Origin: Eledone cirrhosa
Lineage: Eukaryota
Length of the DNA stretch: 64,000 nucleotides
Assembly (NCBI GenBank): GCA_964016885.1
Contig: OZ024742.1
Span: 78,678,001-78,742,000, forward strand
Direction of reading: 5' to 3'
The notes under the pieces were generated by a model. The model saw only the letters and a list, made by a program, of their open reading frames with translations. It was not told where the DNA came from and searched no databases. Position 1 is the stretch's first letter, and the number at the start of each line of letters is the position of its first letter. The translations under genes and the position numbers were made by a program. Below are positions 11,158-64,000 of this stretch, piece by piece.

Positions 11158-11405
11158 GGGTAGATTGGCAGTATCGGTAGAGCGTTGGATAACATGCTTT
11201 GAGGCACACAGTTACAGCTCTTTACGTTCTGAGTTCAAATCCTGCTAAGGTTAGCTTTGTCTTTTATTCTTATAGGCTTGATAAAATAAAGTACCAGTAA
11301 TGTGCTGGGGTCGATAAGATACGGTATCAGTAACATGAATTTAATTGCACCCCCCCCCCCCCCATCCCCAAATGGTTGGCCTTGTGCCTAAATTAGAAAC
11401 CAATA
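11158..11405 (+). mobile_element. tRNA-derived SINE, family S1
   Basis: GATTGGCAGTATCGGTAGAGCG...GAGTTCAAATCC...GATAAAATAAAGTACCAG...GGCCTTGTGCC; reverse of 7129-7323. Confidence 0.75.
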
Positions 11406-16262: not shown

Positions 16263-17564
16263 AATGATGATATAAATATATATCCACCTATGGGTCCTGA
16301 TATAGAGGAAGAATTAACCCTAGCAAATGACTGATATTTATCACTCTTGAAAATATAAAAGGTAAAGTTGACTTTTGTAGGAATTAAACTCAGCCAGAGA
16401 AAATACAGCAAAGCAGTCTACCCAGTATTCTAATGACTCTACCAATTCATTAGAAATGCACATACACATGCGCCACCCTACATAAACTCATGCATGTTGC
16501 AAAGGAAAATGGCCCAGTTATTGGGTATTATTCTCACGACCATAAAGTTGTGGTTTCAATTCCTAGGACCCAGCAACAAGACTCTTTATTTCCTATTGTT
16601 GCTATTTACCTGTGCCAATCTATGTTGAAATTTGCTTTTCCTTGGGTGAACATTGATGGTGTGGAAAGGAGAGACAGACTTGCATGGATCACTGTTGGTC
16701 TTCTTTCGTGTAGGCGTACTCCTTCAAGAGAAACTTTCCAGTTGACTGAATATGGCCTTCTTTGTACATAAGCATTGATAGTTTCATAATTAAATTTGTT
16801 TATTTATTAAAAAAGGCATTTTTAATTGCTTGTTATATTAACCATCACATGTTCTACAATTCAAAACTATTCACTTTAAAATGTTTATATTTAGCTGAAA
16901 TCGTATGTGAGAATCTTTGTTAAATTATATTCCAAAACATAAACAAGATAATGATAAATTTAGTTGTATTATTAAAGACAAATTTTATTTTATTTTTAGA
17001 ATTAATTGAAAAATTTTAGGCAGTGTCTTTCATTAAAAATATAGGAATAGAAGTTTAAGCATTTTAAGTTTTCTTCTATGCAACATACTAGATAGTATGA
17101 TCATCTTTATGATGGTTCTTATCTATTTACATTTCTACTTACTTGCTGGTCAATCTCTCAACCAACCCCATACATCCAACTGTCTATGAAACATGACTAT
17201 TTTTGTACCTATCTAATCATCCAATTATTTTTTCTTCCTACTTTTCTTACCTATCAACTTATCAATTTATCTATATATCTAGAACAAATCTATTTCACTA
17301 GCTATCATATAACAATATATTTATGTATCTATGACATACTTGTTTACAAGCCCCTCCAACTATCTGTTCATCCACATTTACAATTCATTTCCATGTATCA
17401 GAGTAACTACACATTTATAGGTTTGACTATAGAGTTATACATCACTCTTCATATCAATCTAGATATATTTATCTACCTATCTAACTATTAACTTAAAATT
17501 CATGCCTGCATACACACACACACAGACCCATATATTTATCAATATGTATATGTATATCCAGAGT

Positions 17565-18973
17565 CAGTGTGTCAGAGAGAATTGTGATGTCATTGGAGAG
17601 AAGTGTATCCGGAATGATAAAGGTGAGCTTGCCCTCACAAGTGCCGAGAAGAAAGATGCATGGAAGAGTCATTATGATAGATTACTAAATGAGGAGAATG
17701 CATGGGAAGAAGAGACCCTACCCCAAGTAGACCCTATAGAGGGGCCAACAGTACAAGTCAGCAGCAGCGTAGTAAGTAAGGCAATCAAAGATATGAAGAT
17801 GGGGAAGGCAACCGGTCCATCGGGTATAGCTGCTGAGATGCTGAAAGCATCTGGGTCTGTAGGCCACACTATAACCACACGTATTGTTAACCAGGTAATA
17901 CTAGAAGGTGTACACAAGATGTACACAATGGGTACACAAGAGATGTAGCGGGATCTCAGGAAGCTTAATTAAGAATGTAGGCTTCACATGCAGCAGTTGT
18001 GCTGGGACAGCAAGCAGCAAACAGCGACAGGAAACAAGTACCACCAATCCCTGGGAGGGCTCTGTAGAAACAGTAGACAGCTTCTGCTACCTAGGTGACC
18101 AAATTAGCAGCGGAGGTGGGTGTTCAGAAAGTACAATAACTAGGGTAAGAACGGGATGGAAGAAGTTTAGGGAACTACTACCACTGCTAGCTGCAAAAGG
18201 CTTCTCCCTCAAAATGAAAGGCAGACTGTATGATGCGTGTATCCGAACAGAGATGTTGCATGGTAGTGACACCTGGGCGCTGAAGGTGGAAGACTTACGT
18301 AGATTAGAGAGAAACGAAGCCTGCATGCTCCGATGGATGTGTAATAGTAATATACGCGAACGACAAAGCATATATGAATTGAGAGAGAGACTGAGCATAA
18401 GAGGAATCAAATGCTGTGTGCAGGAGAGGCGGTTGCGTTGGTATGGACATGTGATGCGTATGAAGGATGACAGCTGCATAAAAAGGTGCAGAGCACTAGA
18501 AGTTGATGGAAACCGCGGAGTGGGGAGACCCAAGATGACCTGGGATGAGGTGATAAAAGCCGACCTTACCCAATTACACCTCTCAAAGGCGATGACACAC
18601 GACCGTGACCTCTGGCGTCACGCAGTAATACAGAGTACCCGACCGCCCATGGGTACAAGCTGAAGCATATAGACAATATGCCCCCACACCCCTTACTGCA
18701 AGGTGGTCGTGGAGGTGCCACGGCAAAAAAGCCCCCAGCCCACACTGTAAAGTGGTCGTGTAGGTGCCACGAAAAAGCACCCAGCACTCACTGTAAATGA
18801 GGTTGGTGTTAGGAAGGGCATCCAGCTGTAGAAATCAAGCCAAATCAGTTCCTGTATGAGCAAGGCATGGTCAGCCGACCAGACACTGCCCACAACAGGA
18901 CAACCCGTCTAACCCATGCTAGCATGGAAGAACGGACGTAAAACGGTGAAGATGATGATGATGATGATGATGA
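17565..18973 (+). mobile_element. RTE family A2 copy, 5'-truncated, with internal deletion of the RT core
   Basis: Matches ~46134-46476, then jumps to ~47250-48285; full 3' UTR and (GAT)n. Confidence 0.92.
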
Positions 18974-19273: not shown

Positions 19274-19315
<42 letters not shown>

Positions 19316-19318
<3 letters not shown>

Positions 19319-20213
19319 TCATCATTTTACGTCCGCTTTTCCCTGCTTGCAAGAGTGGGACGGGTCTTATTCAGCACAGCAACTCTCTACTCGTCACGGT
19401 CCTTCGTCATCTCCACCGTGAGCTTCAATGATCTGAGGTCTGTTCTCACCACCTCCGCCCATGTTTTTCGTGGTCTACCTCTACCACGTCTTCCTTCAAC
19501 TGGCATTTCCTGGCACTTCTTCACCCATCGGTCATCCTCCATGCGCATCACATGACCATAGCACCTCAGTCTCCTCTCCCATACACTACATTCTATCCCT
19601 CTCAGACACAGTTTCTCTCTCAACACATTTATGCTGGGTCGTTCACGCACATTTACACTGCACATCCAACGGAGCATGCTTGCCTCATTTCTCTCCAGCC
19701 ATCGCATATCCTCTGCAGTTGCTGCCCATGTCTCACTACCATGCAGCATCGCGCTCCTCACACAGGCATCATACAACTGGCCTTTCGTACACAGGGAGAA
19801 AGCCTTCTTCGTCAACAGAGGAAGCAGCTCCCTAAACTTCTTCCAACCCGTCCTTATTCTAGATACTATGGCCTCGGAACACCCTCCTCCCATGCTAATC
19901 TGATCTCCTAGGTACCGGAAGCTATCCACCACTTCTATAGCGCCCCCCTGCATCTGAAAAATGTGTCTATCAATGCGACTTCTACTGTCTAATTTCCCTG
20001 TACATCTACTGCATACATATTTCTCCCTACCTGTTAGTTTGCCTGCTATCCCGCTACATCTCTTGTGTACCCAGGATCTGCATTGTGTGCATTTTATAGA
20101 ATTTATGCCAGTTCCTTGTCTGCATATCGAACATGGCCATTTCCCTGACGGAATCAGAGTTTTGTCCTCTTCTCTACTCATCAACACTTTTGTCTTAGCT
20201 AGGTTCACTCTCA
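19316..20213 (-). mobile_element. RTE family B, 5'-truncated, includes PHD-type finger
   Basis: VNLAKTKVL-WPCSICRQG...CTQCRSWVHKRC...CSRC-FRYLG...GRGRPRKTW; (CAT)n tail next to (TA)n. Confidence 0.92.
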
Positions 20214-20214
20214 T

Positions 20215-20281
20215 GACAACCCGTCTAACCCATGCTAGCGTGGAAGAACGGACGTAAAAAGGTGATGATGATGATGATGAT
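20215..20281 (+). mobile_element. RTE family A2 terminal tail, inverted relative to the adjoining B copy
   Basis: GACAACCCGTCTAACCCATGCTAGCGTGGAAGAACGGACGTAAAA + (GAT)n. Confidence 0.88.
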
Positions 20282-20674
20282 ATATATATACACACACAGA
20301 CACACACATATATATATACACACACACACACACATATATATATACGCACACACATATATATTATGGGTGTGTGTATATATATATATATATGTGCGTGCTT
20401 ATGTATATATGTATATATACACACATACACTTATATTCAAATATAAATAGATATTTCCATATGTCCAGCGCAACAGTTTTTTCTATATAACCATATTATC
20501 TGAATTCTTATTATTCTGTAGAAAAGCTTTTATTTTTGCTATCAATAGACATGTTAAGCTCATTCAATAAATTAATATATTCAGTACTTTATATATCGGT
20601 CTCTGCACATGTATATATATGTTGGTGTGCGTTTGAGCACAAGTATATATATGTGTGGATAGACACACACAAAA

Positions 20675-25866: not shown

Positions 25867-28451
25867 ATCATCATCATCATCATCATCACCGTTTTACGTC
25901 CGTTCTTCCACGCTAGCATGGGTTAGACGGGTTGTCCTGTTGTGGGCAGTGTCTGGTCGGCTGACCATGCCTTGCTCATACAGGAACTGATCTGGCTTGA
26001 TTTCTACAGCTGGATGCCCTTCCTAACACCAACCTCATTTACAGTGAGTGCTGGGTGCTTTTTCGTGGCGCCTACACGTCCACTTTACAGTGTGGGCTGG
26101 GTGCTTTTTTGCCGTGGCACCTCCACGACCACCTTGCGGTGGGGGGGGGGGGGGCATATTGTTTATATGCTTCAGCATGTACCCATGGGAGGTCGGGTAC
26201 CCTGTATTACTGCGTGACGCCAGAAGTCACGGTCGTGTGTCATTGACTTTGAGAGGTGTAGTTGGGTAAGGTCGGCTTTTATCACCTCATCCCAAGTCAT
26301 CTTGGGTCTCCCCACTCCGCGGTTTCCATCAACTTCTAGTGCTCTGCACCTTTTTATGCAGCTGTCATCCTTCATACGCATCACATGTCCATACCAGCGT
26401 AACCGCCTCTCCTGCACGCAGCATTTGATTCCTCTTATGCTCAGTCTCTCTCTCAATTCATTTATGCTTTGTCGTTCACGTATATTACTGTTACACATCC
26501 ATCGGAGCATGCAGGCTTCGTTTCTCTCTAATCTACGTAAGTCTTCCACCTTCAGCGCCCAGGTCTCACTACCATGCAACATCGCTGTTCGGATACACGC
26601 ATCATACAGTCTGCCTTTCATTCTGAGGGAGAAGCCTTTTGCAGCTAGCAGTGGTAGTAGTTCCCTAAACTTCTTCCATCCCGTTCTTACCCTAGTTATT
26701 GTACTTTCTGAGCACCCACCTCCGTTGCTAATTCGGTCACCTAGGTAGCAGAAGCTGTCTACTGTTTCTACAGGGCCCTCCCAGAGATTGGTGGTACTTG
26801 TTTCCTGTGGCTGTTTGCTTGCTGTTTCAGCACAGCTGCTGCATGTGAATCCTACATTCTTAATTAAGCTTCCTGAGATCCCGCTACATCTCTTGTGTAC
26901 CCATTGTTTGCATTTGGGGCAAAGAATGGAGTTCCTACCTACACCTTTCCTACATACTGAGCAAGGCCATTTCCCTGAGGGGATCTGGGTTCTGTTTTCT
27001 CGTCTACTTATAAGGACCTTAGTCTTTGTCATGTTGACTTTGAGGCCCTTTCTCTCTAGTCCCTGCTTCCAGGTTTGGAATTTATTCTCTAGTTCTACCA
27101 TAGATTCAGCTATGAGTGCGAGGTCATCAGCATACAGGAGTTCCCATGGGCATCCGGTCTTAAACTCCTCCGTTATTGCCTGCAGGACTATGATGAACAG
27201 GAGAGGGCTAAGAACAGAGCCCTGGTGGACCCCAACCTGTACGCTAAATTCCTCGCTATACTCATTGCCAATCCTAACTTTGCTGACTGCTCCCCTATAC
27301 ATGGCTTGTACCGCTTTCACAAGCCATTCATCTACTCCTAGTTTTCTAAGAGCCCACCAGATTACTGCACGTGGAACTCTGTCAAAGGCTTTCTCAAGGT
27401 CGACAAATGCCAAGTAGAGTGGCTTACTTTTAGCTAGGTACTTTTCCTGTAATTGCCTCACAAGGAAGAGCGCATCAGTGGTGCCTTTCCCTGGTACAAA
27501 CCCAAATTGCATCTCGTCTATATTCACCCGGTCCCTAATCAGCTGTGCTATAACTCTTTCTGTTACTTTCATGACCTGGTCCATCAACTTTATACCTCTA
27601 TAGTTTCCTCTATCTAGTGCATCGCCTTTACCTTTGTAGCAGTTGACAATGATGCTACTGCACCAATCTTTTGGTATGGCCCCCTCTAGTATTACCTGGT
27701 TAACAATACGTGTGGTTATAGTGTGACCTACAGACCCAGATGCCTTCAGCATCTCGGCAGCTATACCCGATGGACCGGTTGCCTTCCCTATCTTCATATC
27801 TCTGATTGCCTTACTTACTACGCTGCCGCTGACTTGTACTGCTGGTCCCTCTATAGGGTCTACGTGGGGTAGGGTCTCTTCTTCCCATGCATTCTCCTCA
27901 TTTAGTAATCTATCATAATGACTCTTCCATGCATCTTTCTTCTCAGCACTTGTGAGGGCAAGCTCACCTTTATCATTCCGGATACACTTCTCTCCAATGA
28001 CATCACAACTATCTCTGACACACTGCCTCGCAATCTTGAATACCTCCTGTTTCTGGTCCTCACGTTGTAAAACATGCTTGAATTTTCTATCCTCTGCTTC
28101 CCTCCTAGCTAAGTATACTTGTCGCCTAGCTTCCCTCTTGGTCTCTATGTAATGTACCCTGCTCCCCCCGTTCTTCCATTCTTTCCATGCCTGTCTCTTG
28201 GCCTTGACTGCTTCATCTACCTTATTGTTCCACCACCAAGTCACTCTCCTCCTGCTTGAGGTCTTACTCCAGCCACAAACCTCATCCGTCGCCTCTAGTA
28301 AGTTATTTTTTAGGAACTCCCAGTTCTCTTCTACGTTAAATGTCTCTATCTGTTCTTCTTTACTGTCGTAGGCGTTGAGTAAAATATCTTTAAATCTGTT
28401 ACTGGTTGAGGGGACTTTCAGCTTCCAGATCTTTCTTCTCCAGGTTGGCCT
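25867..28451 (-). mobile_element. RTE family A2, 5'-truncated, near-identical to 45707-48285
   Basis: Open RT frame 26172-28451; protein differs from the full-length copy at about two visible residues (IET/IVT, KKF/KKL). Confidence 0.95.
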
Positions 28452-38057: not shown

Positions 38058-38181
38058 GCATGTATGTGTGTGTGGGTGTATCGGAATGCATAATCAATTA
38101 CAGATAATTGTTGTTGTTGTTAATGATCCCATTTGGAACTGAAAGAACTATGATTAAATTAATGATTTCAATACACCGGCT

Positions 38182-38766
38182 CAGAGCAGGAGAGTTAAGG
38201 CGAAAAAGATATCAGATGCTGAATTTGCCGACGACATAGTTTTGGTGACAAACACAGTGAAGGAGGCAGAGGATTTGATGCAGGAGGTTGAGACTGTGTC
38301 GATGAGTGTGGGGCTGAGAATGAATGAGATTAAGACAAAATATCTGGTAGAGAATGTTGAGAAGCCAGAAGGGATTACTAATGTAGGTGGGAAGCCACTA
38401 GAATTGGTTGAGAACTTCCTGTATTTGGGAGCAAAGATTGGGAATACGGAAGATGATGTGGTCGAGAAGAAGAGCAAAGCCTGGGCGGCGTGCCACAGCT
38501 TGAGATCGGTGTGGAAGTCAGACCTTCGTGAAGACCTGAAGATCCGCGTCGTCATTGCTGTAGTGGAGTCTGTGCTGCTGTACGGGTCTGAGACTTGGAC
38601 ACTGACCAAGAAACTCACTCAGATGGTGAATGGGTGCTACACGAGAATGCCGAGGATGGCTCTGAACATTAATCAGTATACACTGATGATGAAAAACTCA
38701 GAGCTGTATGGGAGCCTCCCAAAAGTCAGCTCAAAAGTGACACAGAGAAGACTGAGGTTAGCGTGA
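38182..38766 (+). mobile_element. RT fragment of a different RTE-like LINE family, without PHD insert
   Basis: FADDIVL...GLRMNEIKTK...VENFLYLG...VLLYGSETW...RRLRLA. Confidence 0.85.
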
Positions 38767-40876: not shown

Positions 40877-43800
40877 ATTGTATCTCTCTCAGTTATTTAC
40901 CATGCGACCCTCAGTTCCTACCCCCCCCCCTCTCTCTATGCACTTCTTTAAGGCTTACTACCCTGTCTTTAACCTAATTCATTCAATCTGAAAATATTGA
41001 AGAGATAAGACACTTTCCCATTCTTCTCTGCTAAAATGTACCACTAGAGCTGATTCAAATTTTCCCAGCCAGCCATCCACCTAATCTACGAAGGTATTTT
41101 AGCCTACATATTGTCGTTAATATTATGATGTTCCCTGCTGTATTAGCGTTAAATTTTCCCTGCTGTATTAGCGATAAATTTTCGAGGGTTTCTCTTAGTA
41201 GCTTTTTTCATGTCGTTAATATTATGATGTTCCCTGCTGTATTAGCGTTAAATTTTCCCTGCTGTATTAGCGATAAATTTTCGAGGGTTTCTCTTAGTAG
41301 CTTTTTTCATGACGTTATTATTGTTAATTTTACTGATGTAGTATTAACTTATTAACTTGGATATTTACCATGCGGTATTCTAATCCTATTGTATCTCTCT
41401 CAGTTATTTACCATGCGACCCTCAGTTCCTACCCCCCCCTCTCTCTATGCACTTCTTTAAGGCTTACTACCCTGTCTTTAACCTAATTCATTCAATCTGA
41501 AAATATTGAAGAGATAAGACACTTTCCCATTCTTCTCTGCTAAAATGTACCACTAGAGCTGATTCAAATTTTCCCAGCCAGCCATCCACCTAATCTACGA
41601 AGGTATTTTAGCCTACATATTGTCGTTAATATTATGATGTTCCCTGCTGTATTAGCGTTAAATTTTCCCTGCTGTATTAGCGATAAATTTTCGAGGGTTT
41701 CTCTTAGTAGCTTTTTTCATGTCGTTAATATTATGATGTTCCCTGCTGTATTAGCGTTAAATTTTCCCTGCTGTATTAGCGATAAATTTTCGAGGGTTTC
41801 TCTTAGTAGCTTTTTTCATGTCGTTAATATTATGATGTTCCCTGCTGTATTAGCGTTAAATTTTCCCTGCTGTATTAGCGATAAATTTTCGAGGGTTTCT
41901 CTTAGTAGCTTTTTTCATGTCGTTAATATTATGATGTTCCCTGCTGTATTAGCGTTAAATTTTCCCTGCTGTATTAGCGATAAATTTTCGAGGGTTTCTC
42001 TTAGTAGCTTTTTTCATGTCGTTAATATTATGATGTTCCCTGCTGTATTAGCGTTAAATTTTCCCTGCTGTATTAGCGATAAATTTTCGAGGGTTTCTCT
42101 TAGTAGCTTTTTTCATGACGTTATTATTGTTAATTTTACTGATGTAGTATTAACTTATTAACTTGGATATTTACCATGCGGTATTCTAATCCTATTGTAT
42201 CTCTCTCAGTTATTTACCATGCGACCCTCAGTTCCTACCCCCCCCCTCTCTCTATGCACTTCTTTAAGGCTTACTACCCTGTCTTTAACCTAATTCATTC
42301 AATCTGAAAATATTGAAGAGATAAGACACTTTCCCATTCTTCTCTGCTAAAATGTACCACTAGAGCTGATTCAAATTTTCCCAGCCAGCCATCCACCTAA
42401 TCTACGAAGGTATTTTAGCCTACATATTGTCGTTAATATTATGATGTTCCCTGCTGTATTAGCGTTAAATTTTCCCTGCTGTATTAGCGATAAATTTTCG
42501 AGGGTTTCTCATAGTAGCTTTTTTCATGTCGTTAATATTATGATGTTCCCTGCTGTATTAGCGTTAAATTTTCCCTGCTGTATTAGCGATAAATTTTCGA
42601 GGGTTTCTCTTAGTAGCTTTTTTCATGTCGTTAATATTATGATGTTCCCTGCTGTATTAGCGTTAAATTTTCCCTGCTGTATTAGCGATAAATTTTCGAG
42701 GGTTTCTCTTAGTAGCTTTTTTCATGTCGTTAATATTATGATGTTCCCTGCTGTATTAGCGTTAAATTTTCCCTGCTGTATTAGCGATAAATTTTCGAGG
42801 GTTTCTCTTAGTAGCTTTTTTCATGACGTTATTATTGTTAATTTTACTGATGTAGTATTAACTTATTAACTTGGATATTTACCATGCGGTATTCTAATCC
42901 TATTGTATCTCTCTCAGTTATTTACCATGCGACCCTCAGTTCCTACCCCCCCCCTCTCTCTATGCACTTCTTTAAGGCTTACTACCCTGTCTTTAACCTA
43001 ATTCATTCAATCTGAAAATATTGAAGAGATAAGACACTTTCCCATTCTTCTCTGCTAAAATGTACCACTAGAGCTGATTCAAATTTTCCCAGCCAGCCAT
43101 CCACCTAATCTACGAAGGTATTTTAGCCTACATATTGTCGTTAATATTATGATGTTCCCTGCTGTATTAGCGTTAAATTTTCCCTGCTGTATTAGCGATA
43201 AATTTTCGAGGGTTTCTCTTAGTAGCTTTTTTCATGTCGTTAATATTATGATGTTCCCTGCTGTATTAGCGTTAAATTTTCCCTGCTGTATTAGCGATAA
43301 ATTTTCGAGGGTTTCTCTTAGTAGCTTTTTTCATGACGTTATTATTGTTAATTTTACTGATGTAGTATTAACTTATTAACTTGGATATTTACCATGCGGT
43401 ATTCTAATCCTATTGTATCTCTCTCAGTTATTTACCATGCGACCCTCAGTTCCTACCCCCCCCCCTCTCTCTATGCACTTCTTTAAGGCTTACTACCCTG
43501 TCTTTAACCTAATTCATTCAATCTGAAAATATTGAAGAGATAAGACACTTTCCCATTCTTCTCTGCTAAAATGTACCACTAGAGCTGATTCAAATTTTCC
43601 CAGCCAGCCATCCACCTAATCTACGAAGGTATTTTAGCCTACATATTGTCGTTAATATTATGATGTTCCCTGCTGTATTAGCGTTAAATTTTCCCTGCTG
43701 TATTAGCGATAAATTTTCGAGGGTTTCTCATAGTAGCTTTTTTCATGTCGTTAATATTATGATGTTCCCTGCTGTATTAGCGTTAAATTTTCCCTGCTGT

Positions 43801-44623
43801 ATTAGCGATAAATTTTCGAGGGTTTCTCTTAGTAGCTTTTTTCATGTCGTTAATATTATGATGTTCCCTGCTGTATTAGCGTTAAATTTTCCCTGCTGTA
43901 TTAGCGATAAATTTTCGAGGGTTTCTCTTAGTAGCTTTTTTCATGTCGTTAATATTATGATGTTCCCTGCTGTATTAGCGTTAAATTTTCCCTGCTGTAT
44001 TAGCGATAAATTTTCGAGGGTTTCTCTTAGTAGCTTTTTTCATGACGTTATTATTGTTAATTTTACTGATGTAGTATTAACTTATTAACTTGGATATTTA
44101 CCATGCGGTATTCTAATCCTATTGTATCTCTCTCAGTTATTTACCATGCGACCCTCAGTTCCTACCCCCCCTCTCTCTATGCACTTCTTTAAGGCTTACT
44201 ACCCTGTCTTTAACCTAATTCATTCAATCTGAAAATATTGAAGAGATAAGACACTTTCCCATTCTTCTCTGCTAAAATGTACCACTAGAGCTGATTCAAA
44301 TTTTCCCAGCCAGCCATCCACCTAATCTACGAAGGTATTTTAGCCTACATATTGTCGTTAATATTATGATGTTCCCTGCTGTATTAGCGTTAAATTTTCC
44401 CTGCTGTATTAGCGATAAATTTTCGAGGGTTTCTCTTAGTAGCTTTTTTCATGTCGTTAATATTATGATGTTCCCTGCTGTATTAGCGTTAAATTTTCCC
44501 TGCTGTATTAGCGATAAATTTTCGAGGGTTTCTCTTAGTAGCTTTCTTCATGACGTTATTATTGTTAATTTTACTGATGTAGTATTAACTTGGATATTTA
44601 CCATGCGACCCTCAGTTCCTACC
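40877..44623 (+). repeat. Nested tandem array: six monomers (starts 40877, 41388, 42194, 42902, 43412, 44121), each ~312 bp plus n x 99 bp, n = 2,5,4,2,4,2
   Basis: First five monomer lengths 511, 806, 708, 510, 709; the 99-mer itself holds a 25-bp direct repeat (TTCCCTGCTGTATTAGCGWTAAATT); copies almost identical. Confidence 0.96.
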
Positions 44624-44866
44624 TCACAATGTCCCTCCCCCCCACCCCCACACACCACCATAGTCTATTCGACCAATCAAACCTAGCATGCCATTTCCAC
44701 TGCTGCTGCTGCTACTACCTGCCTAACTAACTCTCTCCTCCTCTGGCGCATCCCAACACACCCTGCCATTACCCCACCACCACTGTCCTTCTAGCCCTCA
44801 ATTTTCCCACCGTTATGGATGGATGAGCTGGGAATACACGAGCAACTCTGAATCAATAGATGAAAT

Positions 44867-47800
44867 ATGAATCTGCGAGCTACCAAGCACCCACGTGAAG
44901 CGCCAACCCAGAGACCCTCCCCTACGAGTGTCGACAAATGCCCAAAACTCCGAGTTGGTACCATCAATGTAGGCTCAATGAAAGGAAGAGCAGGAGAAAT
45001 CGTAGAAATGCTAGAGCGAAAGGAAGTTGATGTATGCTGTGTGCAAGAGACTAGATGGAGAGGAGGGTCTGCTAGAGTCCTTGTAGGAAAAAGCCAGTGC
45101 TACAAATTTTTCTGGGTGGGAAATGACGATGGGATGGGTGGTGTAGGTATACTATTAGCTGACAAGTGGGTAGATAAAGTAATCTCAGTGTACAGGGTAA
45201 ATGCAAGAATCATTAAACTCAGACTAGTCCTGAATAAGACAATTACCACAATAATATCAGCTTACGCACCCCAATCGGGGCTGCCAGACGAACTTAAGGA
45301 TAGGTTTTACGAGTCCCTAATACACACTACTGCTCTAACAGACGACAAGGACTTCCTAATCATTGCAGGAGATTTTAACGGACACATAGGTAAACACTGC
45401 GACGGCTTCAATAGAGTACATGGAGGCCATGGAGTTGGCACAAGAAATGAGGAAGGATTCAGACTTCTAGAATTCTGCGACGCCAATGACATGTCGATAT
45501 GTAACACAAACTTTAAAAAACCCGACAACCACCTGATCACCTATAGATCAGGGGAGCACTCTAGTCAGTTAGATTTTATCCTCATCAGAGGACGTGACAG
45601 ATGGACGGTCGTAAACACAAAAGCCTTCCCTAGTGAGGAATGTACATCCCAACATAGCTTAGTTGTCAGCGACCTCACGGTCAGAACTAGACGAGCCCTG
45701 AAACAGAGGCCAACCTGGAGAAGAAAGATCTGGAAGCTGAAAGTCCCCTCAACCAGTAACAGATTTAAAGATATTTTACTCAACGCCTACGACAGTAAAG
45801 AAGAACAGATAGTGACATTTAACGTAGAAGAGAACTGGGAGTTCCTAAAAAATAACTTACTAGAGGCGACGGATGAGGTTTGTGGCTGGAGTAAGACCTC
45901 AAGCAGGAGGAGAGTGACTTGGTGGTGGAACAATAAGGTAGATGAAGCAGTCAAGGCCAAGAGACAGGCATGGAAAGAATGGAAGAACGGGGGGAGCAGG
46001 GTACATTACATAGAGACCAAGAGGGAAGCTAGGCGACAAGTATACTTAGCTAGGAGGGAAGCAGAGGATAGAAAATTCAAGCATGTTTTACAACGTGAGG
46101 ACCAGAAACAGGAGGTATTCAAGATTGCGAGGCAGTGTGTCAGAGATAGTTGTGATGTCATTGGAGAGAAGTGTATCCGGAATGATAAAGGTGAGCTTGC
46201 CCTCACAAGTGCTGAGAAGAAAGATGCATGGAAGAGTCATTATGATAGATTACTAAATGAGGAGAATGCATGGGAAGAAGAGACCCTACCCCACGTAGAC
46301 CCTATAGAGGGACCAGCAGTACAAGTCAGCGGCAGCGTAGTAAGTAAGGCAATCAGAGATATGAAGATAGGGAAGGCAACCGGTCCATCGGGTATAGCTG
46401 CCGAGATGCTGAAGGCATCTGGGTCTGTAGGTCACACTATAACCACACGTATCGTTAACCAGGTAATACTAGAGGGGGCCATACCAAAAGATTGGTGCAG
46501 TAGCATCATTGTCAACTGCTACAAAGGTAAAGGCGATGCACTAGATAGAGGAAACTATAGAGGTATAAAGTTGATGGACCAGGTCATGAAAGTAACAGAA
46601 AGAGTTATAGCACAGCTGATTAGGGACCGGGTGAATATAGACGAGATGCAATTTGGGTTTGTACCAGGGAAAGGCACCACTGATGCGCTCTTCCTTGTGA
46701 GGCAATTACAGGAAAAGTACCTAGCTAAAAGTAAGCCACTCTACTTGGCATTTGTCGACCTTGAGAAAGCCTTTGACAGAGTTCCACGTGCAGTAATCTG
46801 GTGGGCTCTTAGAAAACTAGGAGTAGATGAATGGCTTGTGAAAGCGGTACAAGCCATGTATAGGGGAGCAGTCAGCAAAGTTAGGATTGGCAATGAGTAT
46901 AGCGAGGAATTTAGCGTACAGGTTGGGGTCCACCAGGGCTCTGTTCTTAGCCCTCTCCTGTTCATCATAGTCCTGCAGGCAATAACGGAGGAGTTTAAGA
47001 CCGGATGCCCATGGGAACTCCTGTATGCTGATGACCTCGCACTCATAGCTGAATCTATGGTAGAACTAGAGAATAAATTCCAAACCTGGAAGCAGGGACT
47101 AGAGAGAAAGGGCCTCAAAGTCAACATGACAAAGACTAAGGTCCTTATAAGTAGACGAGAAAACAGAACCCAGATCCCCTCAGGGAAATGGCCTTGCTCA
47201 GTATGTAGGAAAGGTGTAGGTAGGAACTCCATTCTTTGCCCCAAATGCAAACAATGGGTACACAAGAGATGTAGCGGGATCTCAGGAAGCTTAATTAAGA
47301 ATGTAGGATTCACATGCAGCAGCTGTGCTGAAACAGCAAGCAAACAGCCACAGGAAACAAGTACCACCAATCTCTGGGAGGGCCCTGTAGAAACAGTAGA
47401 CAGCTTCTGCTACCTAGGTGACCGAATTAGCAACGGAGGTGGGTGCTCAGAAAGTACAATAACTAGGGTAAGAACGGGATGGAAGAAGTTAAGGGAACTA
47501 CTACCACTGCTAGCTGCAAAAGGCTTCTCCCTCAGAATGAAAGGCAGACTGTATGATGCGTGTATCCGAACAGCGATGTTGCATGGTAGTGAGACCTGGG
47601 CGCTGAAGGTGGAAGACTTACGTAGATTAGAGAGAAACGAAGCCTGCATGCTCCGATGGATGTGTAACAGTAATATACGTGAACGACAAAGCATAAATGA
47701 ATTGAGAGAGAGACTGAGCATAAGAGGAATCAAATGCTGCGTGCAGGAGAGGCGGTTACGCTGGTATGGACATGTGATGCGTATGAAGGATGACAGCTGC

Positions 47801-47986
47801 ATAAAAAGGTGCAGAGCACTAGAAGTTGATGGAAACCGCGGAGTGGGGAGACCCAAGATGACTTGGGATGAGGTGATAAAAGCCGACCTTACCCAACTAC
47901 ACCTCTCAAAGTCAATGACACACGACCGTGACTTCTGGCGTCACGCAGTAATACAGGGTACCCGACCTCCCATGGGTACATGCTGA
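44867..47986 (+). CDS. LINE polyprotein: apurinic-like endonuclease + reverse transcriptase with embedded PHD-type zinc finger (1039 aa)
   Basis: APE motifs TINV, VQET, SAYAPQ, GDFNGH, LDFIL, QH; RT motifs QFGF, DLEKAFD, QGSVLSP, YADD (47024-47035), YLG; C4HC3 at 47189-47326. Confidence 0.96.
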   Translation: MNLRATKHPREAPTQRPSPTSVDKCPKLRVGTINVGSMKGRAGEIVEMLERKEVDVCCVQETRWRGGSARVLVGKSQCYKFFWVGNDDGMGGVGILLADKWVDKVISVYRVNARIIKLRLVLNKTITTIISAYAPQSGLPDELKDRFYESLIHTTALTDDKDFLIIAGDFNGHIGKHCDGFNRVHGGHGVGTRNEEGFRLLEFCDANDMSICNTNFKKPDNHLITYRSGEHSSQLDFILIRGRDRWTVVNTKAFPSEECTSQHSLVVSDLTVRTRRALKQRPTWRRKIWKLKVPSTSNRFKDILLNAYDSKEEQIVTFNVEENWEFLKNNLLEATDEVCGWSKTSSRRRVTWWWNNKVDEAVKAKRQAWKEWKNGGSRVHYIETKREARRQVYLARREAEDRKFKHVLQREDQKQEVFKIARQCVRDSCDVIGEKCIRNDKGELALTSAEKKDAWKSHYDRLLNEENAWEEETLPHVDPIEGPAVQVSGSVVSKAIRDMKIGKATGPSGIAAEMLKASGSVGHTITTRIVNQVILEGAIPKDWCSSIIVNCYKGKGDALDRGNYRGIKLMDQVMKVTERVIAQLIRDRVNIDEMQFGFVPGKGTTDALFLVRQLQEKYLAKSKPLYLAFVDLEKAFDRVPRAVIWWALRKLGVDEWLVKAVQAMYRGAVSKVRIGNEYSEEFSVQVGVHQGSVLSPLLFIIVLQAITEEFKTGCPWELLYADDLALIAESMVELENKFQTWKQGLERKGLKVNMTKTKVLISRRENRTQIPSGKWPCSVCRKGVGRNSILCPKCKQWVHKRCSGISGSLIKNVGFTCSSCAETASKQPQETSTTNLWEGPVETVDSFCYLGDRISNGGGCSESTITRVRTGWKKLRELLPLLAAKGFSLRMKGRLYDACIRTAMLHGSETWALKVEDLRRLERNEACMLRWMCNSNIRERQSINELRERLSIRGIKCCVQERRLRWYGHVMRMKDDSCIKRCRALEVDGNRGVGRPKMTWDEVIKADLTQLHLSKSMTHDRDFWRHAVIQGTRPPMGTC

Positions 47987-52079: not shown

Positions 52080-53166
52080 TTTGTGTGTATAATAAAACGT
52101 CAAATGTGTATATACAAATTATGCTTTGAAATATCAGATTTACTTCATGTCTTTCTAAGAACAATAGATATATGTATGTTAAGTGATTTCAAATAAGAAA
52201 TGAAAGCAGGTCACACTTATCAATAGATTTGGGATCTTATTGCTTCAAGACAACCATCAAGATTGCTGTGAAAAGTAGCATGTAGTAAACATACTCCCAA
52301 AGTAGATATAAGTATTGATACAATGCTTCAAATATGAGAAGACAGAAAGTAATTTAGTGTTTAGAAAATATTATCAGATTAGACATAAACATTGACTGGC
52401 AAAACTAAAATCTTTTGTGACCATAATTCTAAGGAAATACACTGCCTATGTTTTTTGTTTAGTGTTATAAATAATTGTTTCTACTTTCGACACAAGGCCA
52501 GCAATTACCCAGTACATTACTGGTACTTTATTTGATTGACCTCATAAGGATAAAAGGCAAAGTTAACCTTGGCGGGATTTGAACTCAGATGGTTCAAATA
52601 ATTTAATCTTTTAAGGGGTTTAGTAAAATAAAAAAATTTTCAAAACAATACATAGCGAAGAGATTGGACATTGAAGCACTGAGAATTAATGCACAGCGTC
52701 TGGGAAATATGAGGTTCAAATCTTCATAGCAGCTAATGGCGAATTTTAAGGGTTTTCACACTATTTTATAAGCTATTTCATAGCATCTCAGCGCATGAGC
52801 ACATCATACTTTACATTAATTGTTTTAATTTTAAGAAATTATGATAGGGAGTTCTAATTTAAATATGAATATATGAAAATAAAAATGTTTGTAACAAAAT
52901 GTGAAAGAGAGTTATTCAGGGAATATTCTCAATGAAGATATAAGCATTGACTGAATGAATATGCAAGGAATTATATGAGAATTGAAACAAATATTTGTTT
53001 TGAATGTGGGAAATATTCCTTGTGTAGTAATGACACAGAATATATCTAAAGGTTAACTAGAATAGGAAATAATGCATAATACACCGATCATCAACAATTA
53101 TTTTTATATATATATCATCATCATCACCGTTTTACGTCCGTTCTTCCATGCTAGCATGGGTTAGAC

Positions 53167-55041: not shown

Positions 55042-56867
55042 CGTGTGTGTGTGTATCATCATCATCATCGTTTAACGTCCATTTTGCATGCTAGCATAGG
55101 TTATATGGTTTGTCTTGTTTGTGGCAAATCGGGTCAGGTGACTATGTCTTGCTCATACAGATCTGTTTCTGGCTTGGTCTATATATATATAGATATAGAT
55201 AGATAGATAGATCATCATCATCATTATCATTATCCTTTAACATATATATATATATATTGTTAAATAAGAATGTTGACAAAGATGATGATGATAATGCTGA
55301 ACTAAAGAAAGCAATCAATTTTACAGTGCTACTAATGTTTATTAGATACAATCTATGCCAGAGTTATATCTATTTACAAAGCAGGTGGACTGGACTATTG
55401 AGAATTTTAAATATGTCAGCCATATTAAGGCTAGTGTGTATATGGGCTACAATCTGACATCCCTCGACTGCTTGCCAGTAGTATTCTATTTACTCGGCCA
55501 CCCAAGTCCTCTTTTGCATATATGTTTATACTAGAATGATGAACATACTGATTTTTATGGGAATAACTATTTTTAGAGCTGGATAATAAGTAACCCTATG
55601 CAAAAATTACTTATCAAGATCTATTTGAAAATGTGGTCATGTGTGTTTGTCTCAACACATATTCACATTCAAGCCACGTGGACATTTGGTGGCCTCTTGT
55701 ATAAAAAATACACCCCCACAGCTCAACAGCTTGGTGTCTAAAACTCAGGGGAACAAGTACCACACTTAAAAAAACATATAACAGAAGGACCTGTGGCTGT
55801 AGAATACTGCCTCAAAAAGCCTTATTCAATGCATGATAGCATGGTAAAATGATGATGATGATACCGTTTAAAATGATGATGATGATACCGTTTTACCTAA
55901 AAGGACAAAATAATGAATACTAACTGAAAATAAGGATAGGGGTGTAGGGAAGGAGAACAGCCATAGTGACAACAACAACAACAAATATAACAGTAGTAAG
56001 GAAGACAATTACCACATCAAGGGTAACAACAACAGCAGTAATTATTTCCCTCTAATTAAGATTAATAACTTAACTGGAACAAATTTCTCAATGAAAATGA
56101 TTCAAATTCTATGACTTTTAGAATACCATGGACATTTCACTCTTCTTTTTTTTTTTTTTTTAACATTTTTACATGTTTGTTTTTTTTTTTCATTTTATTT
56201 CAACATTTCCTCATTTTTTTCTCTTGCAATTTCTTCTATTTATTTAGATTTTTTTTTCCTTTTTCCGTTTCTCTCAATCGTCTAATTGGTGATTGCACAA
56301 AGGTGAAAAAGTGGAGGATAATAATTAATTAACTCCACCAATCAATATAATAATGCTCCAGAATTATTTCCAGACGTATTGAATTAGAGAAAAATGATAT
56401 TTCTAACAAAATCAAATGGTCAGCACAGATTTGTATTAAAAATGGAAATAAACGAAAACAAAATACGGTATCCACTCCCCACAAGAAAAGAAAACAAAAA
56501 CAAAAATAATAACAGAAATAAAATAAAACAAAAAACATTCCACTTTGAAAGCCTGTTTGATCTGACCAATAAGAGTCTGAGGAAACAAGATGGAGAAAGT
56601 TTCAAATTTCTCTTCCCTCTTTTGTCATCATCAACAATGATGAGCTGTTTTGGTCATTTAAATATAATTAGGTACCATAAGGCCAAGTTGTTAGGGTTTT
56701 AGACAAATATTTTGTAGTATTTGTTCTATCTCTCTGCAACATCTGATGCTCAAACAATTATGTAAATCCACTGCCATAAAATGGTACTTTTTTATCAACC
56801 TTGAAAGACTCAAAGGTAAAGCTGAACTTCGTGGGATTTGAACTCAAAATATGAAATCTTGGAACAA

Positions 56868-57058
56868 ATAATTGTTTCGACCTTTGGCACAAGGCCAGCA
56901 ATTATTCCAGTGCATTACTGGTGCTTTATTTTATCAACCCATAAGGATGAAAGGCAAAGTTAACTTTGGCAGGATTTGAACTCAGACCGTAAAGGGCCGT
57001 AACTCTATGCTGCAAAGCATGGCGAATGACCCTCTACCAATACTGCCAATCCACTGCC
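56868..57058 (-). mobile_element. tRNA-derived SINE, family S1
   Basis: Colinear with 7129-7323. Confidence 0.8.
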
Positions 57059-57445: not shown

Positions 57446-58486
57446 TTAAATATAAACTAAAAAGTTTTTTGTTAGTCTGTGTTCTCAGCTAAAAATATAC
57501 CCATGGGATAAACCTACAGTAAAATCATTAAATAATAAATGTCTTTGATAAAAATACTTATCTCTTATGGTTTGTAGTTAACTGCAGAAAGTCTTCATAA
57601 GATACTAACTCAAGTATTTGTCAACTACGTTTCTTTGGCAAGCTATTGAGAATGCCTAGAAAATGGCATAAAATTGCACTGAAATACGGATAAAATATAA
57701 AGATAGACTTCTAAAAGTTTTGAAAGATAATTAACCAGAAATTCCACATATAGAAATGGATGAGTTGGGATTTGAAAGGTAATTAACTAAGGATTCCACA
57801 TATAGAAGTATATGATTTGGGAGTTCAGTCACTGAAAAAAAAAAACACCCTGCCACCCTACCCTCTCCTTTCAATGACAAGCAATGCTTTCAATGCAACT
57901 TGTCAGTTAAGCTAAGTCTGTATAATAACATACATAATTCTTCCACCCATGAAATGGAGAAAATAGTTGTCAGCTGCTATATAACATTTAAGAAATAAAA
58001 ACAAAAATGTTACATGTTGCTCAGTTGGTTTTGATGATGAGTGTTTCAGTTGTTTGGTCAACAGAATTACCTACTTGTTAAATTAAAGTGTAAATGGCTG
58101 AGTATTCCACATACACAGAGATTCAGCAAGACACTGTGCATGACAAGGCTAGCTTTTTGTCTTACAGTCCTTTTCATGGGCTTCCACGTAGTTTCCCTAT
58201 TCCCCATATCATTCCCAGGGCTTGGGTTATAGTAAAATATACTTGTTTAAGATACCACACAATGGGACCAAACCTGCTACCAAGGTACACAAAGCTGTGT
58301 TCAGTAATGGAGTAATGCTGTGCAATAAAAAATAAAATTGATAATAATAATTATAATAATAATTGTTTCTACTTTTGGCACAGGCATTACTAGTATTTTA
58401 TTTTACCGACCCCGTAAGGATGAAAGGCAAAGTTAACCTTGGTGGGATTTGAATTCACTGAAGCTAACTTTGCCTCAGTAATAATA

Positions 58487-58672
58487 AATAATTGTTTCTA
58501 CTTTTGGCACAAGGCCAGCAATTATCCAGTACATTACTGGTACTTTATTTTATCGACCCCGTAAGGATGAAAGGCAAAGTTAACTTCGGCGGGATTTGAA
58601 CTCAGTTCGTAAAGGGACGTAACTGTGCTGCAAAGCATGGTGTCTGACCCTCTACCGATACTGCCAATCCAC
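58487..58672 (-). mobile_element. tRNA-derived SINE, family S1 (partial copy just upstream at ~58360-58455)
   Basis: Colinear with 7129-7323. Confidence 0.8.
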
Positions 58673-59400: not shown

Positions 59401-60190
59401 AGTTATTAGATAAATAGATATGTTTCTTTTATTTGCCACTAGGGCATCAAAAGTGGGACAAGTACAAAGGGGGGAGTTTACACAAAAAGGCGTCCCCAAT
59501 AAGGAGGAGGCAATAACAAAATATAAAAATAAAATAAGATATAACAAAAAATAAAATTTTTAACAAAATCCTCAATAGAGAGGAGGCGCCTTGGGGGGTC
59601 GCACACACCCCCGAAAAAAGTGTGCAACCCTTCTCCTCAGGAGCACAGAGAAGGGGTGCTCCCTTGGTCTTTCATCTTCCTCACCTATAGTCTGATGTAG
59701 AGTGAAGGCCCATTCACACGGGCCATTCTCGCCACTTTCACCCATCTTTCATAGAAACGGCTGGGGTGCAGCACCTCTCTCTCCATCCTGATCCTTCTTC
59801 CGAAATGATATCGGAAGAAACGGACCAGTTGTTGGCCAGAGAGAAAGGTGCCTGACCTCAGTCCTTTCAGACGCGTCCACCATACAACCTCTTTCGCCAT
59901 GGCTATTACGCACAGAAACACCGCCTCTGCTTCATCTTTGAAGGGGGGAGGCGGCTTGATCATTACAATAGACTCGGTGGTCAACCGGATCGGTCCCACC
60001 CTTGACAGCAGTTGTTCGACATAGCCCCACAGATCGGCAATGCCCGAGCAGTGTACCAATGCGTGTGCAACGGTTTCCTCGTCGCACACGCATCTGGGAC
60101 AGATCTTTAGTCGGGGTCCCTACCCGGGCGCCCGTGTCTGTAGAGCCTTTCTCGAACGGGTAAAGCCCCTCGGTAGCACTGCCAGGCCAT
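59401..60190 (-). mobile_element. L1/Tx1-like LINE 3' fragment (C-terminal CCHC region and 3' UTR)
   Basis: CPRC...EETVAHALVHC...LW motif in the frame ending at 59685; GC-rich; T-rich UTR. Confidence 0.75.
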
Positions 60191-60573
60191 ATATTCCTGT
60201 CTGCTTGTCAGTCAAGCTGTGTGACTGCATGAATGAGTAAATATTATATATGATATACATAAATAAAAGGAGTGTGTTGCTGTTGTTGTTGTTGTTGTGG
60301 TGGTGGTGGCTGTAGTTGTTTTAGCACAGTTATTAGATAAATAGATAGAAGGATAAGTAGTTCTTTTGGTGTGGGAGGTGAATGGTCAGGGCAGGAAACA
60401 GCTGCCTTTGCAAAACAGTAAAAAGACACTCATATATTCCTGTCTGCTTGTCAGTCAAGCTGTGTGACTGCATGAATGAGTAAATATTATATATGATATA
60501 CATAAATAAAAGGAGTGTGTTGCTGTTGTTGTTGTTGTTGTGGTGGTGGTGGCTGTAGTTGTTTTAGCACAGT
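60188..60573. repeat. 143-bp direct duplication (60188-60330 and 60431-60573) with a 100-bp spacer
   Basis: Both copies read CATATATTCCTGTCTGC...TTAGCACAGT. Confidence 0.93.
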
Positions 60574-62327: not shown

Positions 62328-62370
<43 letters not shown>

Positions 62371-62375
<5 letters not shown>

Positions 62376-63121
62376 GTTTACATATATATATATATATATA
62401 TATGTGTTTTGCAACGGGTCACTTTGTGGCTCAATGAAGAGTTAATAAATTAAATAATCAGAGCTATATATCATAAAACATGTCTATAGAATCACCAGAT
62501 AAAATATATACCGTTTCCTCTCCCAATTAGCATAATTAACCATATAAAAAATCAATTAGACCAAGCTATAAGAATAAAGGCTCCTATGAAGAAATCTCCG
62601 ACAAATAACCGAAAGCAGCCCTTCGCGGATGGTTGCGACGGAGTATTTATCGAGTATTTGGACAGCGTGTATAAATCGACCAAATATACAGTCAACTAAA
62701 CAGAATTAGGTGTAAAATAAACTAGAAGAAAAGTGAACATATTTAGTTACCTCTACCATGGTTTCGTCCGCATTTTAAGATATCCGATAAGATTGGAAAT
62801 CTAGAGCACCGGACTCTTCAGGAGTTAGCTCAAATTTAGACAATTAATTTTCCAAAGTGATCGCGCCAAGAATACATTAAAAAATGGCTAAGAATCGTGA
62901 AGTTAGAAAGGATGTGATTAGTTGCTTACGGCTGGTAGGCTTTTTGCTAGAAAGCGCAGCCCAATACAGCCAAAATTGTATCTCAACCTAAAGGGAGATT
63001 ATTACATATAAAGGTTTACATATATATATATATATGTGTTTTGCAACAGGTCACTATGCTAATTGGGAGAGGAAACGGTATATATTTTATCTGGTGATTC
63101 TATAGACATGTTTTATGATAT
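62371..63121 (-). mobile_element. Non-coding hammerhead-bearing retroelement (retrozyme or Penelope pseudo-LTR-like)
   Basis: Direct repeat 62371-62423 / 63009-63055; inverted repeat 62468-62534 / 63055-63121; central hammerhead; no ORF of 60 aa or more in the unit; flanked by (TA)n. Confidence 0.75.
62745..62830 (-). ncRNA. Type I hammerhead ribozyme, intact catalytic core
   Basis: AGCUAACUC-CUGAAGA-GUCCG-[39-nt hairpin]-CGGAC-GAAA-CCAUGG-UA-GAGGUAACU; predicted cut after GUA, between 62754 and 62753. Confidence 0.85.
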
Positions 63122-63168
63122 CTCTATATATATACATATCTATCTATCTAGCCGCCGCTGCCGCCGTC

Positions 63169-64000
63169 ACCATCACCATCATCATCATCATCATTTTATA
63201 TCCGCTTTTCCCTGCTTGCAAGGGTGGGACCGGTCTTATTCAGCACAGCATCTCTCCACTCGTCACGGTTCTTCGTCATCTCCACCGTGAGATTCAACGA
63301 TCTGAGGTCTGTTCTCACCACCTCCGCCCATGTTTTTCGTGGTCTACCTCTACCACGTCTTCCTTCAACTGGCATTTCCTGGCACTTCTTCACCCATCGA
63401 TCATCCTCCATGCACATCACATGTCCATACCACCGCAGTCTCTTCTCTCGCACACTACATTCTATCCCTCTCAGACACAGTTTCTCTCTCAATACATTCA
63501 TGCTGGGTCGTTCACGCACATTTACACTGCACATCCAACGGAGCATGCTTGCCTCATTTCTCTCCAGCCGTCGCATATCCTCTGCAGTTGCTGCTCATGT
63601 ATCACTACCATACAGCATCGCGCTCCTCACACAGGCATCATATATCGGCCCTTCATACGCAGGGAGAAAGCCTTCTTCGTCAACAGAGGAAGCAGCTCCC
63701 TAAACTTCTTCCAACCCATCCTTATTCTAGATACTATGGCCTCAGAACACCCCCTCCCATGCTAATCTGATCTAATAGGTACCGGAAGCTATCCACCACT
63801 TCTATAGCACCCGCCTGCATTTGAAAAATGTGTCTATCAATGCGACTTCTACTGTCTAATTTCCCTGTACATCTACTGCAAACCTATTTCTCTCTACCTG
63901 TTAGTTTGCCTGCTATCCCACTACATCTCTTGTGTACCCAGGATCTGCATTGTGTGCATTTTATAGAATTTATGCCAGTTCCTTTTCTGCATATCGAACA
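63169..64000 (-). mobile_element. RTE family B 3' portion, runs off the window end; frameshifted
   Basis: Colinear with 19316-20132; LERNEASMLRWMC...GRGRPRKTW; (CAT)n tail. Confidence 0.92.

Follow-up and report, generated by a model that had tools for sequence, protein, structure and literature searches.

What is the short, hammerhead-bearing repeat that interrupts a TA microsatellite near the end of this stretch of DNA, and how did it get there? The window, by which we mean the whole stretch of 64 kb that was analysed, consists of AT-rich, animal-like DNA (GC 0.28-0.48 per 2 kb) that is dense in microsatellites. A sequence-only reading of it had proposed a candidate retrozyme or circular-RNA retroelement. 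We consider it probable that the locus holds one inserted copy of a many-copy, non-coding hammerhead repeat that was copied into a TA microsatellite by a Penelope-type element (PLE), which would make it a non-LTR retrozyme. The parts of this reading are not equally secure: that the repeat belongs to a family of non-autonomous hammerhead retroelements is very likely, and a PLE is likely to have been its mobiliser, but on whether the template was circular rather than linear and multimeric the arguments are evenly balanced.

The hammerhead unit

The locus holds 1.07 units plus an exact inverted copy of 67 bp, inserted in (TA)n (Table 1), and the 632-bp unit occurs once within the window. As the sequence-only reading had it, the ends of the unit repeat directly, including a TA run (62365-62426 and 63003-63058), and a 67-bp segment is copied again in inverted orientation at the 5' edge. 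The offset between the terminal repeats is 632-638, since the internal TA run measures 22 nt in one and 16 nt in the other; they also differ by one substitution (62416 G, 63048 A), which is a CpG-type change.

That reading had furthermore reported the absence of an ORF, and this stands. The longest stop-to-stop frame wholly within the unit counts 69 aa, none of ten unit frames matched Pfam, and the most open frame, with X at its stops, gave no match among 1.84 billion proteins; protein similarity and ORFs are absent on both sides of the hammerhead. Because it lacks an ORF for a telomerase-like reverse transcriptase and a GIY-YIG endonuclease, the unit is not an autonomous PLE. Two coding candidates were dropped, namely a remnant coding region 3' of the hammerhead, where three frames are broken and the most open one is without protein matches, and a suspected likeness of the downstream frame to PLE N-termini, which the protein search did not support. 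A tRNA search of the unit found no tRNA and no tRNA head, and a scan of it for bacterial promoters and terminators is uninformative.

Table 1. Features of the insertion and its immediate flanks, in window coordinates
Feature	Position	Strand	Remark
(TA)17 run, left target microsatellite	62338..62371		
Terminal repeat, 3' copy, with internal 22-nt TA run; outer edge is end B	62365..62426	-	
Full 632-bp non-coding unit, 35% GC	62405..63036	-	
End A (tail-less), putative start of reverse transcription, ~97 nt inside end B	62465..62468	-	
Segment from which the inverted copy derives; 3' strand of the predicted rod base	62468..62534	-	
Predicted long rod	62475..62765	-	fold prediction
Apical stem-loop of the rod, CGCGAAG loop core, candidate protein-binding site	62615..62636	-	
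Type I hammerhead motif, predicted cut 62754/62753	62745..62830	-	
Extra hairpin inside loop II	62778..62802	-	p 0.84-0.88
Terminal repeat, 5' copy, extra ~0.07 unit, pseudo-LTR-like partial tandem	63003..63054	-	
Inverted, 5'-truncated second copy, 3' end outward	63055..63121	+	67/67 identical to 62468-62534
Right flank, TA/TCTA-rich host microsatellite	63122..63150		no target-site duplication discernible

So does the unit carry a hammerhead, or a chance likeness of one? On the minus strand a complete type I core is present, with CUGAAGA (62821-62815), a stem II of 5 bp (GUCCG/CGGAC, 62814-10/62770-66), GAAA after stem II, and GUA. Loop II counts 39 nt and contains a further hairpin, and helix III consists of one pair and a palindromic tetraloop (C-CAUG-G), with the 8-nt palindrome ACCAUGGU at this helix. 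Stem I is paired at seven of nine positions, and helix I is open-ended. The core rules (CUGANGA, GAAA and UH, with G10.1-C11.1 and C15.2-G16.2) all hold, and the helices can form with 7/9 positions in I, 5 bp in II and either 1 bp (monomer) or 6 bp (dimer) in III. The core nucleotides, the hairpin-extended stem II, the palindromic stem III and the 7/9 pairing of stem I had each been claimed from the letters, and each was recovered.

A hammerhead descriptor found this one site on both strands of the window, and among 200 dinucleotide-shuffled windows a single one gave any loose match and none an equally good one, with strict cut-offs that were derived from this very hammerhead. Rfam reported no family at gathering level in the window. 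With a 181-bp stretch the sole family was Hammerhead_1, aligned to the hammerhead core at 16.6 bits (E 0.18), which does not reach the gathering score of 34 for RF00163; loop II of that model is much shorter than the 39 nt present here. With a 901-bp stretch, Hammerhead_1 was absent among the 21 matches listed, and the miRNA and snoRNA matches there were set aside as noise from TA runs. None of 38 listed variable sites falls within the 29 core and stem II/III positions (chance P 0.15). We conclude that the hammerhead in the 632-bp unit is a sequence motif beyond chance.

Two further signals lie within the motif. Helix III holds an ATG with strong surroundings (ACCATGG). In helix I, the 3' strand reads AG/GTAA like a splice donor, a sequence that recurs nowhere else in the unit and whose frequency in the window is 0.24 per kb. 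CTAAT and TTTAG follow it, which could speculatively mark a retained intron of 55 nt (62750-62696, minus strand). PLEs carry introns near their hammerhead.

Copies in public DNA runs and the ends of the insertion

The segment 62405-63016 was compared at 80% likeness with four of 12 public DNA runs (X1, X4, X8 and X10); some of the unit is present in nine of the 12 runs listed, all 12 of which are without an RNA label. Matches were found in 2718 contigs of X1, 3747 reads of X10, 45 contigs of X4 and nine contigs of X8. The four runs come from four studies, X1 and X10 deriving from organism A, X4 from organism B and X8 from organism E; since X1 may be the window's own source, it is counted as non-independent of the window. 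The family covers all 30 bins of the segment in both X1 and X10, and the identity of its copies ranges from 99+ to under 90%.

The head-to-tail joint from 63016 to 62405 is found in 27 X10 reads that begin at six different places; their shorter side reaches as many as 45 letters, whereas the window locus could supply only ~22. One X1 contig holds a head-to-tail junction with 38 other intervening letters (23 at the window locus), two groups of X10 reads show further variants of it, and one X4 contig runs from 62974 back to 62409. Because other copies show the junction with different letters, the terminal repeat belongs to the element and is not host DNA; a host origin of the direct repeat, which the sequence-only reading had named as a ground for giving up its proposal, is thereby answered at the family level, the junction recurring in other copies. 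As regards tandem multimers, for which it had proposed a check, other copies do have head-to-tail junctions, but two hammerheads never lie within a single record. A tandem with two hammerheads is absent at the window locus, with its 1.07 units, and among the records in X1, X4, X8 and X10, and no single read or contig of these runs spans a whole unit.

Sequencing depth is higher over the 3' 210 nt of the unit than over the rest, 8.3x in X1 and 8.7x in X4, but only 1.7x in X10. Since subfamilies diverge at this very step, 5' truncation accounts for it only in part, related families contributing as well, and it does not give a copy number. The 3' 210 nt are common to divergent subfamilies. One subfamily carries a 14-letter insertion at 62899 (51 + 35 X10 reads), and another an extra helix I base at 62822 (64 X10 reads, four X1 contigs and one X8 contig) that, judged by eye, would give five contiguous helix I pairs. 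Scans for exact patterns gave no loci in metagenome, viral and prokaryote contigs, which are non-animal collections and uninformative on range. The unit is a non-coding retroelement family and not a chance motif. It shares with metazoan non-LTR retrozymes that it is non-coding, has a GC content below 50%, carries a type I hammerhead and is multicopy; the tandem of two hammerheads is the exception, as the window locus lacks it.

Could the unit instead be the pseudo-LTR (pLTR) end of an autonomous, protein-coding PLE, left over from 5' truncation or recombination, with no independent 632-nt family behind it? PLE hammerheads reside in pLTRs and most PLE copies are truncated, according to the available text of PMC4209133. 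The sharing of the 3' 210 nt between divergent subfamilies, one of them perhaps autonomous, would agree with such an origin, as would the well-placed ATG in helix III and the splice-donor-like sequence after the cut site. Beyond end B, however, the sequence re-enters the start of the unit, both in the window and in other copies, with 27 joint reads where the depth of the last bin is 54. Together with the lack of coding signs on either side of the hammerhead, this makes a PLE remnant highly doubtful.

On the sense (hammerhead) strand, the main copy ends leftward in (TA)17, at the tailed end B, and the inverted copy ends rightward in TA-rich DNA at a position equivalent to 62468, which is end A; both 3' ends point outward. 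The outer end of the inverted copy was also found independently, since at 62465 the sequence of 150 X10 reads departs from the unit and continues as a TA-rich consensus (agreement 0.61) finishing in a TA run, although an AGCT site (62462-62465) adjoins this end in what is a restriction library. End A is absent among the six X1 loose-end rows listed (320 more), and end B is seen at the window locus only. All six listed (of 12) X10 'molecule end' peaks lie at AATT sites; they were rejected as element ends, being artefacts of the restriction library. At 62513, where the window has a minority base (15% of the X1 depth), the inverted copy has it too, which hints at a single template for both cDNAs; the copy breaks off at 62534, where the strongest predicted helix has its foot. 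Both flanks are TA-rich microsatellite with no clear target duplication, and the left boundary is ambiguous (62365-62371) because the last TA bases are common to the element end.

A partial tandem, an inverted 5'-truncated copy, two 3' ends and a microsatellite target together form the PLE footprint as published. PLE insertions are described with a partial tandem, an adjoining inverted 5'-truncated copy, a one-ended tail, a pLTR hammerhead and a bias towards (TA)n or other microsatellites (PMC8557442), and the PAc protein of an anole PLE nicks and extends both DNA strands, with two internal RNA starts by which the tail is defined (PMC11167929). The sequence-only reading had left the inverted copy unexplained; it matches this published signature (PMC8557442). 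Mobilisation in trans by a Penelope-type enzyme and targeting of TA repeats, both of which it had proposed, fit the geometry of the insertion, but the partner is unseen in the window, where none of 110 non-LINE frames (of 201 frames of at least 70 aa) matched PLE-type families. Given the TA bias, such a partner would be expected to be of the Neptune or Nematis type, with the CX2-5CxxC linker.

Such geometry might also arise at the DNA level, if a satellite fragment that happens to contain a hammerhead was rearranged by repair or template switching in the TA run, or as an artefact of assembly. TA runs are fragile, the flanks are simple repeats, and the window locus is itself unverified by reads across its flanks or inversion. 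Nevertheless, the inverted copy ends where the 150 family reads also end, the motif was not matched in shuffles at the same strictness, and the geometry fits a described retroelement footprint; we find this explanation barely credible.

A different enzyme may be sought among the LINEs in which the window is rich, and whose APE-RT-PHD architecture we take to be of the RTE type. Twin priming produces LINE inversions, and in this manner a SINE-like repeat moved by these LINEs could have acquired its inverted copy. Recent, intact APE-RT-PHD LINEs are abundant in the window, and ~40 bp beyond the right edge of the insertion there is a LINE tail. The unit, however, shows no similarity to the window LINE copies beyond TA runs and has neither a (CAT)n tail nor a tRNA head. 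Moreover, two internal 3' ends and a more-than-unit length are traits of PLEs and not of LINEs, going by PMC11167929 as far as available, so that movement by LINEs appears very unlikely.

The LINEs and other repeats around the locus deserve a description of their own. An intact frame of 1040 aa (44864-47986, plus strand) encodes an APE endonuclease, a reverse transcriptase (RT) and a PHD finger, and its protein has relatives at 56-64%. A second, inverted and 5'-truncated copy (25871-28451, minus strand) is 99.8% identical to it over 2581 bp, from which we infer a recently active LINE family; older relatives lie at 1344-3698, 17463-18968, 19315-20430 and 63179-64000. In its composition and LINE tails the window is reminiscent of cephalopod genomes. 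A different LINE-type RT fragment of 202 aa occupies 38158-38766 on the plus strand (RVT_1, E 1.7e-5). A young tandem array (40877-44607, 97-99% identity), with units of about 510-810 bp and nested 99-bp sub-repeats in variable number, ends ~260 bp before the intact LINE frame and has no hammerhead by descriptor. Furthermore, an exact direct duplication of 143 bp is found at 60188-60330 and 60431-60573, and members of a dispersed repeat family, with identities of 76-92%, at five or more sites (7130-7322, 11160-11309, 52467-52589, 56790-57058 and 58353-58672).

Predicted fold and the nature of the template

Folding of the sense strand of 62470-62765 gave a z of -2.2, with five of 200 shuffles as good, and +1.5 for the plus strand; for the circular unit, z was -2.7 on the sense strand (30 shuffles) and 0.0 on the opposite one. 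By these models, the unit RNA is self-paired on the sense strand only, and modestly so. The predicted rod runs for ~290 nt from 62765 to 62475 on the minus strand, its strongest helix (62698-62685/62533-62546) counting 14 bp at p 0.99; the best arm duplex was reached by four of 300 shuffles, the arm having been picked after the fold. CUAUAG at 62490-62485 (minus strand) resembles the helix III palindrome, as does the common variant CUAUGG (62485, about 40% of X10 reads), and intramolecular pairing with helix III is conceivable.

At the apex of the rod, the CGCGAAG loop core is kept in four sequence classes, as seen by eye in consensus strings. The apical stem is GCAACC/GGCUGC in the window, and GUGG/CCAC in one class (346 X10 reads), where two pairs have changed on both sides and one pair is repaired; another class (113 reads, 11 contigs) has a perfect 6 bp, GCAGCC/GGCUGC. 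On the basis of this comparison, which is a single hand alignment of consensus strings with one arm visible in the fourth class, the apical stem is predicted to covary among subfamilies. Covariation over the whole rod is insignificant: among 40 of 215 variant rows, 11 keep a pair, 11 break one and 18 are unpaired, the null being 12.9 breaks (P 0.28). Three predicted pairs that vary on both sides (P 0.02) were not taken as support, as only two of the three are compatible and the alleles are unphased.

And what of the ribozyme within this fold? In the monomer only stem II is predicted to form, the active fold costing 8-13 kcal/mol. The hammerhead had been called intact, which holds for its sequence but not for its monomeric active fold, predicted to be unfavourable with stem I pair probabilities of 0.006-0.015 in the 86-nt motif. 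Two 86-nt motifs in an unconstrained co-fold give a double hammerhead (-43.4 vs -36.4 kcal/mol for two monomers); with flanks, its predicted energy lies 17-21 kcal/mol above that of the free co-fold. In the ensemble, the strands of helices I and III pair with 62456-62500 around end A, with a mean p of 0.62 and 0.76, and end A is itself predicted to be unpaired. A designed anti-hammerhead duplex was considered and rejected, since the isolated duplexes are no stronger than chance (106 and 138 of 300 shuffles as good). The off-fold of the hammerhead is a prediction at the level of the model and not evidence of design. By prediction, too, the single hammerhead at the window locus functions only when dimerised; as it would need a second copy, this locus could not release a monomer by itself. 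HHR_Amex1 of axolotl, in which helix III also has one pair and a palindromic tetraloop, works as a dimer (PMC7229834, Cervera & de la Pena 2020), and by likeness to axolotl retrozymes with this helix III type, cleavage that depends on a dimer, followed by circularisation, may apply to the present family as well.

In the main rival reading no circle is involved, and a PLE enzyme copied a linear read-through transcript of tandem copies, with the hammerhead a passenger of the pLTR, as in a Penelope-type SINE. Between the terminal repeats there is a difference of one base and of 6 nt in the TA run, as would be expected of neighbouring units, although a CpG-type substitution and slipping TA runs imply that both differences may postdate insertion. 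The predicted cost of the active fold agrees with a passenger role, and the available portions of several reports add to this: uncleaved RNA is the main substrate of the anole PLE, for which hammerhead mutants leave insertion in vitro unimpaired (PMC11167929), eight of nine Xenopus retrozyme dimers failed to cleave (bioRxiv 10.64898/2026.07.22.740005), and Naiad PLEs and the non-autonomous Chlamys build the same structures without a hammerhead (PMC8557442). The anole data and the inactive Xenopus dimers would permit a hammerhead that merely travels along. Against this, no part of the core is missing, the palindrome of helix III is perfect, none of the 38 listed variable sites touches the core (weak at P 0.15), and self-pairing extends over the whole unit on the sense strand but not on the other. 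All in all, we judge a linear template without a circle to be unlikely, if worth serious attention.

For the retrozyme reading that we prefer, insertion could proceed as follows. Tandem copies elsewhere would be transcribed on the hammerhead strand, and two hammerheads would pair via the ACCAUGGU palindrome and cut, yielding monomers of ~632 nt, which may be circularised by a host ligase. The monomer RNA would then fold into the rod, with the ribozyme off, and be bound by the PLE protein, perhaps at the conserved apical loop. The PLE reverse transcriptase-endonuclease would nick both strands of (TA)n, and cDNA would be primed at two internal sites with ~97 nt between them, both of which finish in a short UA run able to pair with the target. 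The first cDNA would run once round plus ~50 nt, producing the terminal repeat and the tail, the second would be halted after 67 nt at the strongest helix, and head-to-head joining of both would leave the inversion.

A bolder version of this scheme can be imagined. In the ~630-nt circular RNA the hammerhead would be locked off by pairing around the start of reverse transcription, the conserved apical loop would recruit the PLE enzyme, whose binding or copying would switch the ribozyme on, and the insertions would record two-strand priming on the circle by TA microhomology. We deem this improbable as a whole. If true, a PLE protein would couple ribozyme cleavage to retrotransposition, in a retrozyme built like a plant retrozyme or a viroid.

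Comparison with known systems

The class of element as such has already been described and is widespread (PMC7229834, bioRxiv 10.64898/2026.07.22.740005). That retrozymes are non-autonomous PLE derivatives is the thesis of the latter (Li, Clavereau & Pollet 2026), and the link had previously been argued from co-occurrence, shared hammerheads and pLTR similarity, as far as the accessible text of these sources goes. New here is a PLE insertion footprint directly on a short non-coding hammerhead unit, which links retrozyme and PLE by mechanism; its size and predicted blocked fold, nearer to those of plant retrozymes, its long structured loop II and its long tail are further differences. In the open literature (subscription journals, supplements, Repbase and Dfam lying outside the scope), no description of this unit family or of PLE-type inversions at retrozyme insertions was found. 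With mapped candidate starts, a candidate binding loop and a predicted off-fold, the unit offers a small substrate for in vitro PLE assays, which could address what PLE hammerheads do and whether circles are the template.

Metazoan non-LTR retrozymes, in the parts of the reports available, share with the unit a non-coding, low-GC sequence with one type I hammerhead (PMC7229834, bioRxiv 10.64898/2026.07.22.740005), head-to-tail organisation, dispersed monomers and PLEs as their proposed mobiliser, and HHR_Amex1 has the same helix III type (PMC7229834). With 632 nt the unit exceeds the 150-450 given in PMC7229834 but lies within the 51-972 of bioRxiv 10.64898/2026.07.22.740005. It differs by its structured 39-nt loop II, and its hammerhead is predicted to be paired away, whereas metazoan circles are mostly predicted with the hammerhead free (PMC7229834). 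Metazoan retrozymes have two hammerheads where the window locus has one; the preprint's criterion for an active element is two or more units in a row, each bearing a complete hammerhead, monomers also being counted as family members (bioRxiv 10.64898/2026.07.22.740005). An inverted copy and two defined 3' ends set the window locus apart, the word 'inverted' being absent from PMC7229834 in its available form. RNA circles have been demonstrated for metazoan retrozymes, in contrast to the present family, known from DNA alone.

Canonical EN+ PLEs (Penelope/Poseidon, Neptune, Nematis and Hydra), as described in the accessible sections, also have a pLTR partial tandem with an inverted 5'-truncated copy at the 5' end (PMC8557442, PMC4209133), as well as a one-ended tail, a palindromic helix III and an AT-rich or microsatellite target without visible duplication (PMC8557442, PMC4209133, PMC11167929). 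These elements, however, carry an RT/GIY-YIG frame and repeat with a period of several kb, unlike the frameless unit with its 632-bp period, and their tail of 30-40 bp compares with ~97 nt here. PAc starts at sites non-homologous to the cut DNA (PMC11167929), whereas the ends in the window finish in UA runs able to pair with the target. Typically, the minimal hammerheads of PLEs have a bulged base before stem II, which the window hammerhead lacks.

The Chlamys elements MRC1 and Chlamys-N4 are likewise short, non-autonomous PLE derivatives, with pLTRs, head-to-tail insertions, heavy 5' truncation and microsatellite targets (PMC8557442, PMC9977147). They differ in that they occur in green algae, insert into (C)n or (CA)n and have a known partner (PMC8557442, PMC9977147), and most Chlamys are described without a canonical hammerhead. 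Plant LTR retrozymes, finally, have a type III hammerhead, true LTRs, a 4-bp target duplication, a GC content above 55% and a Gypsy partner, none of which applies to the window unit. Yet at 600-800 nt, and with an RNA predicted to be self-paired with its ribozyme blocked (PMC7229834 and PMC7761336, in the portions accessible), they are alike to it in size and in predicted fold.
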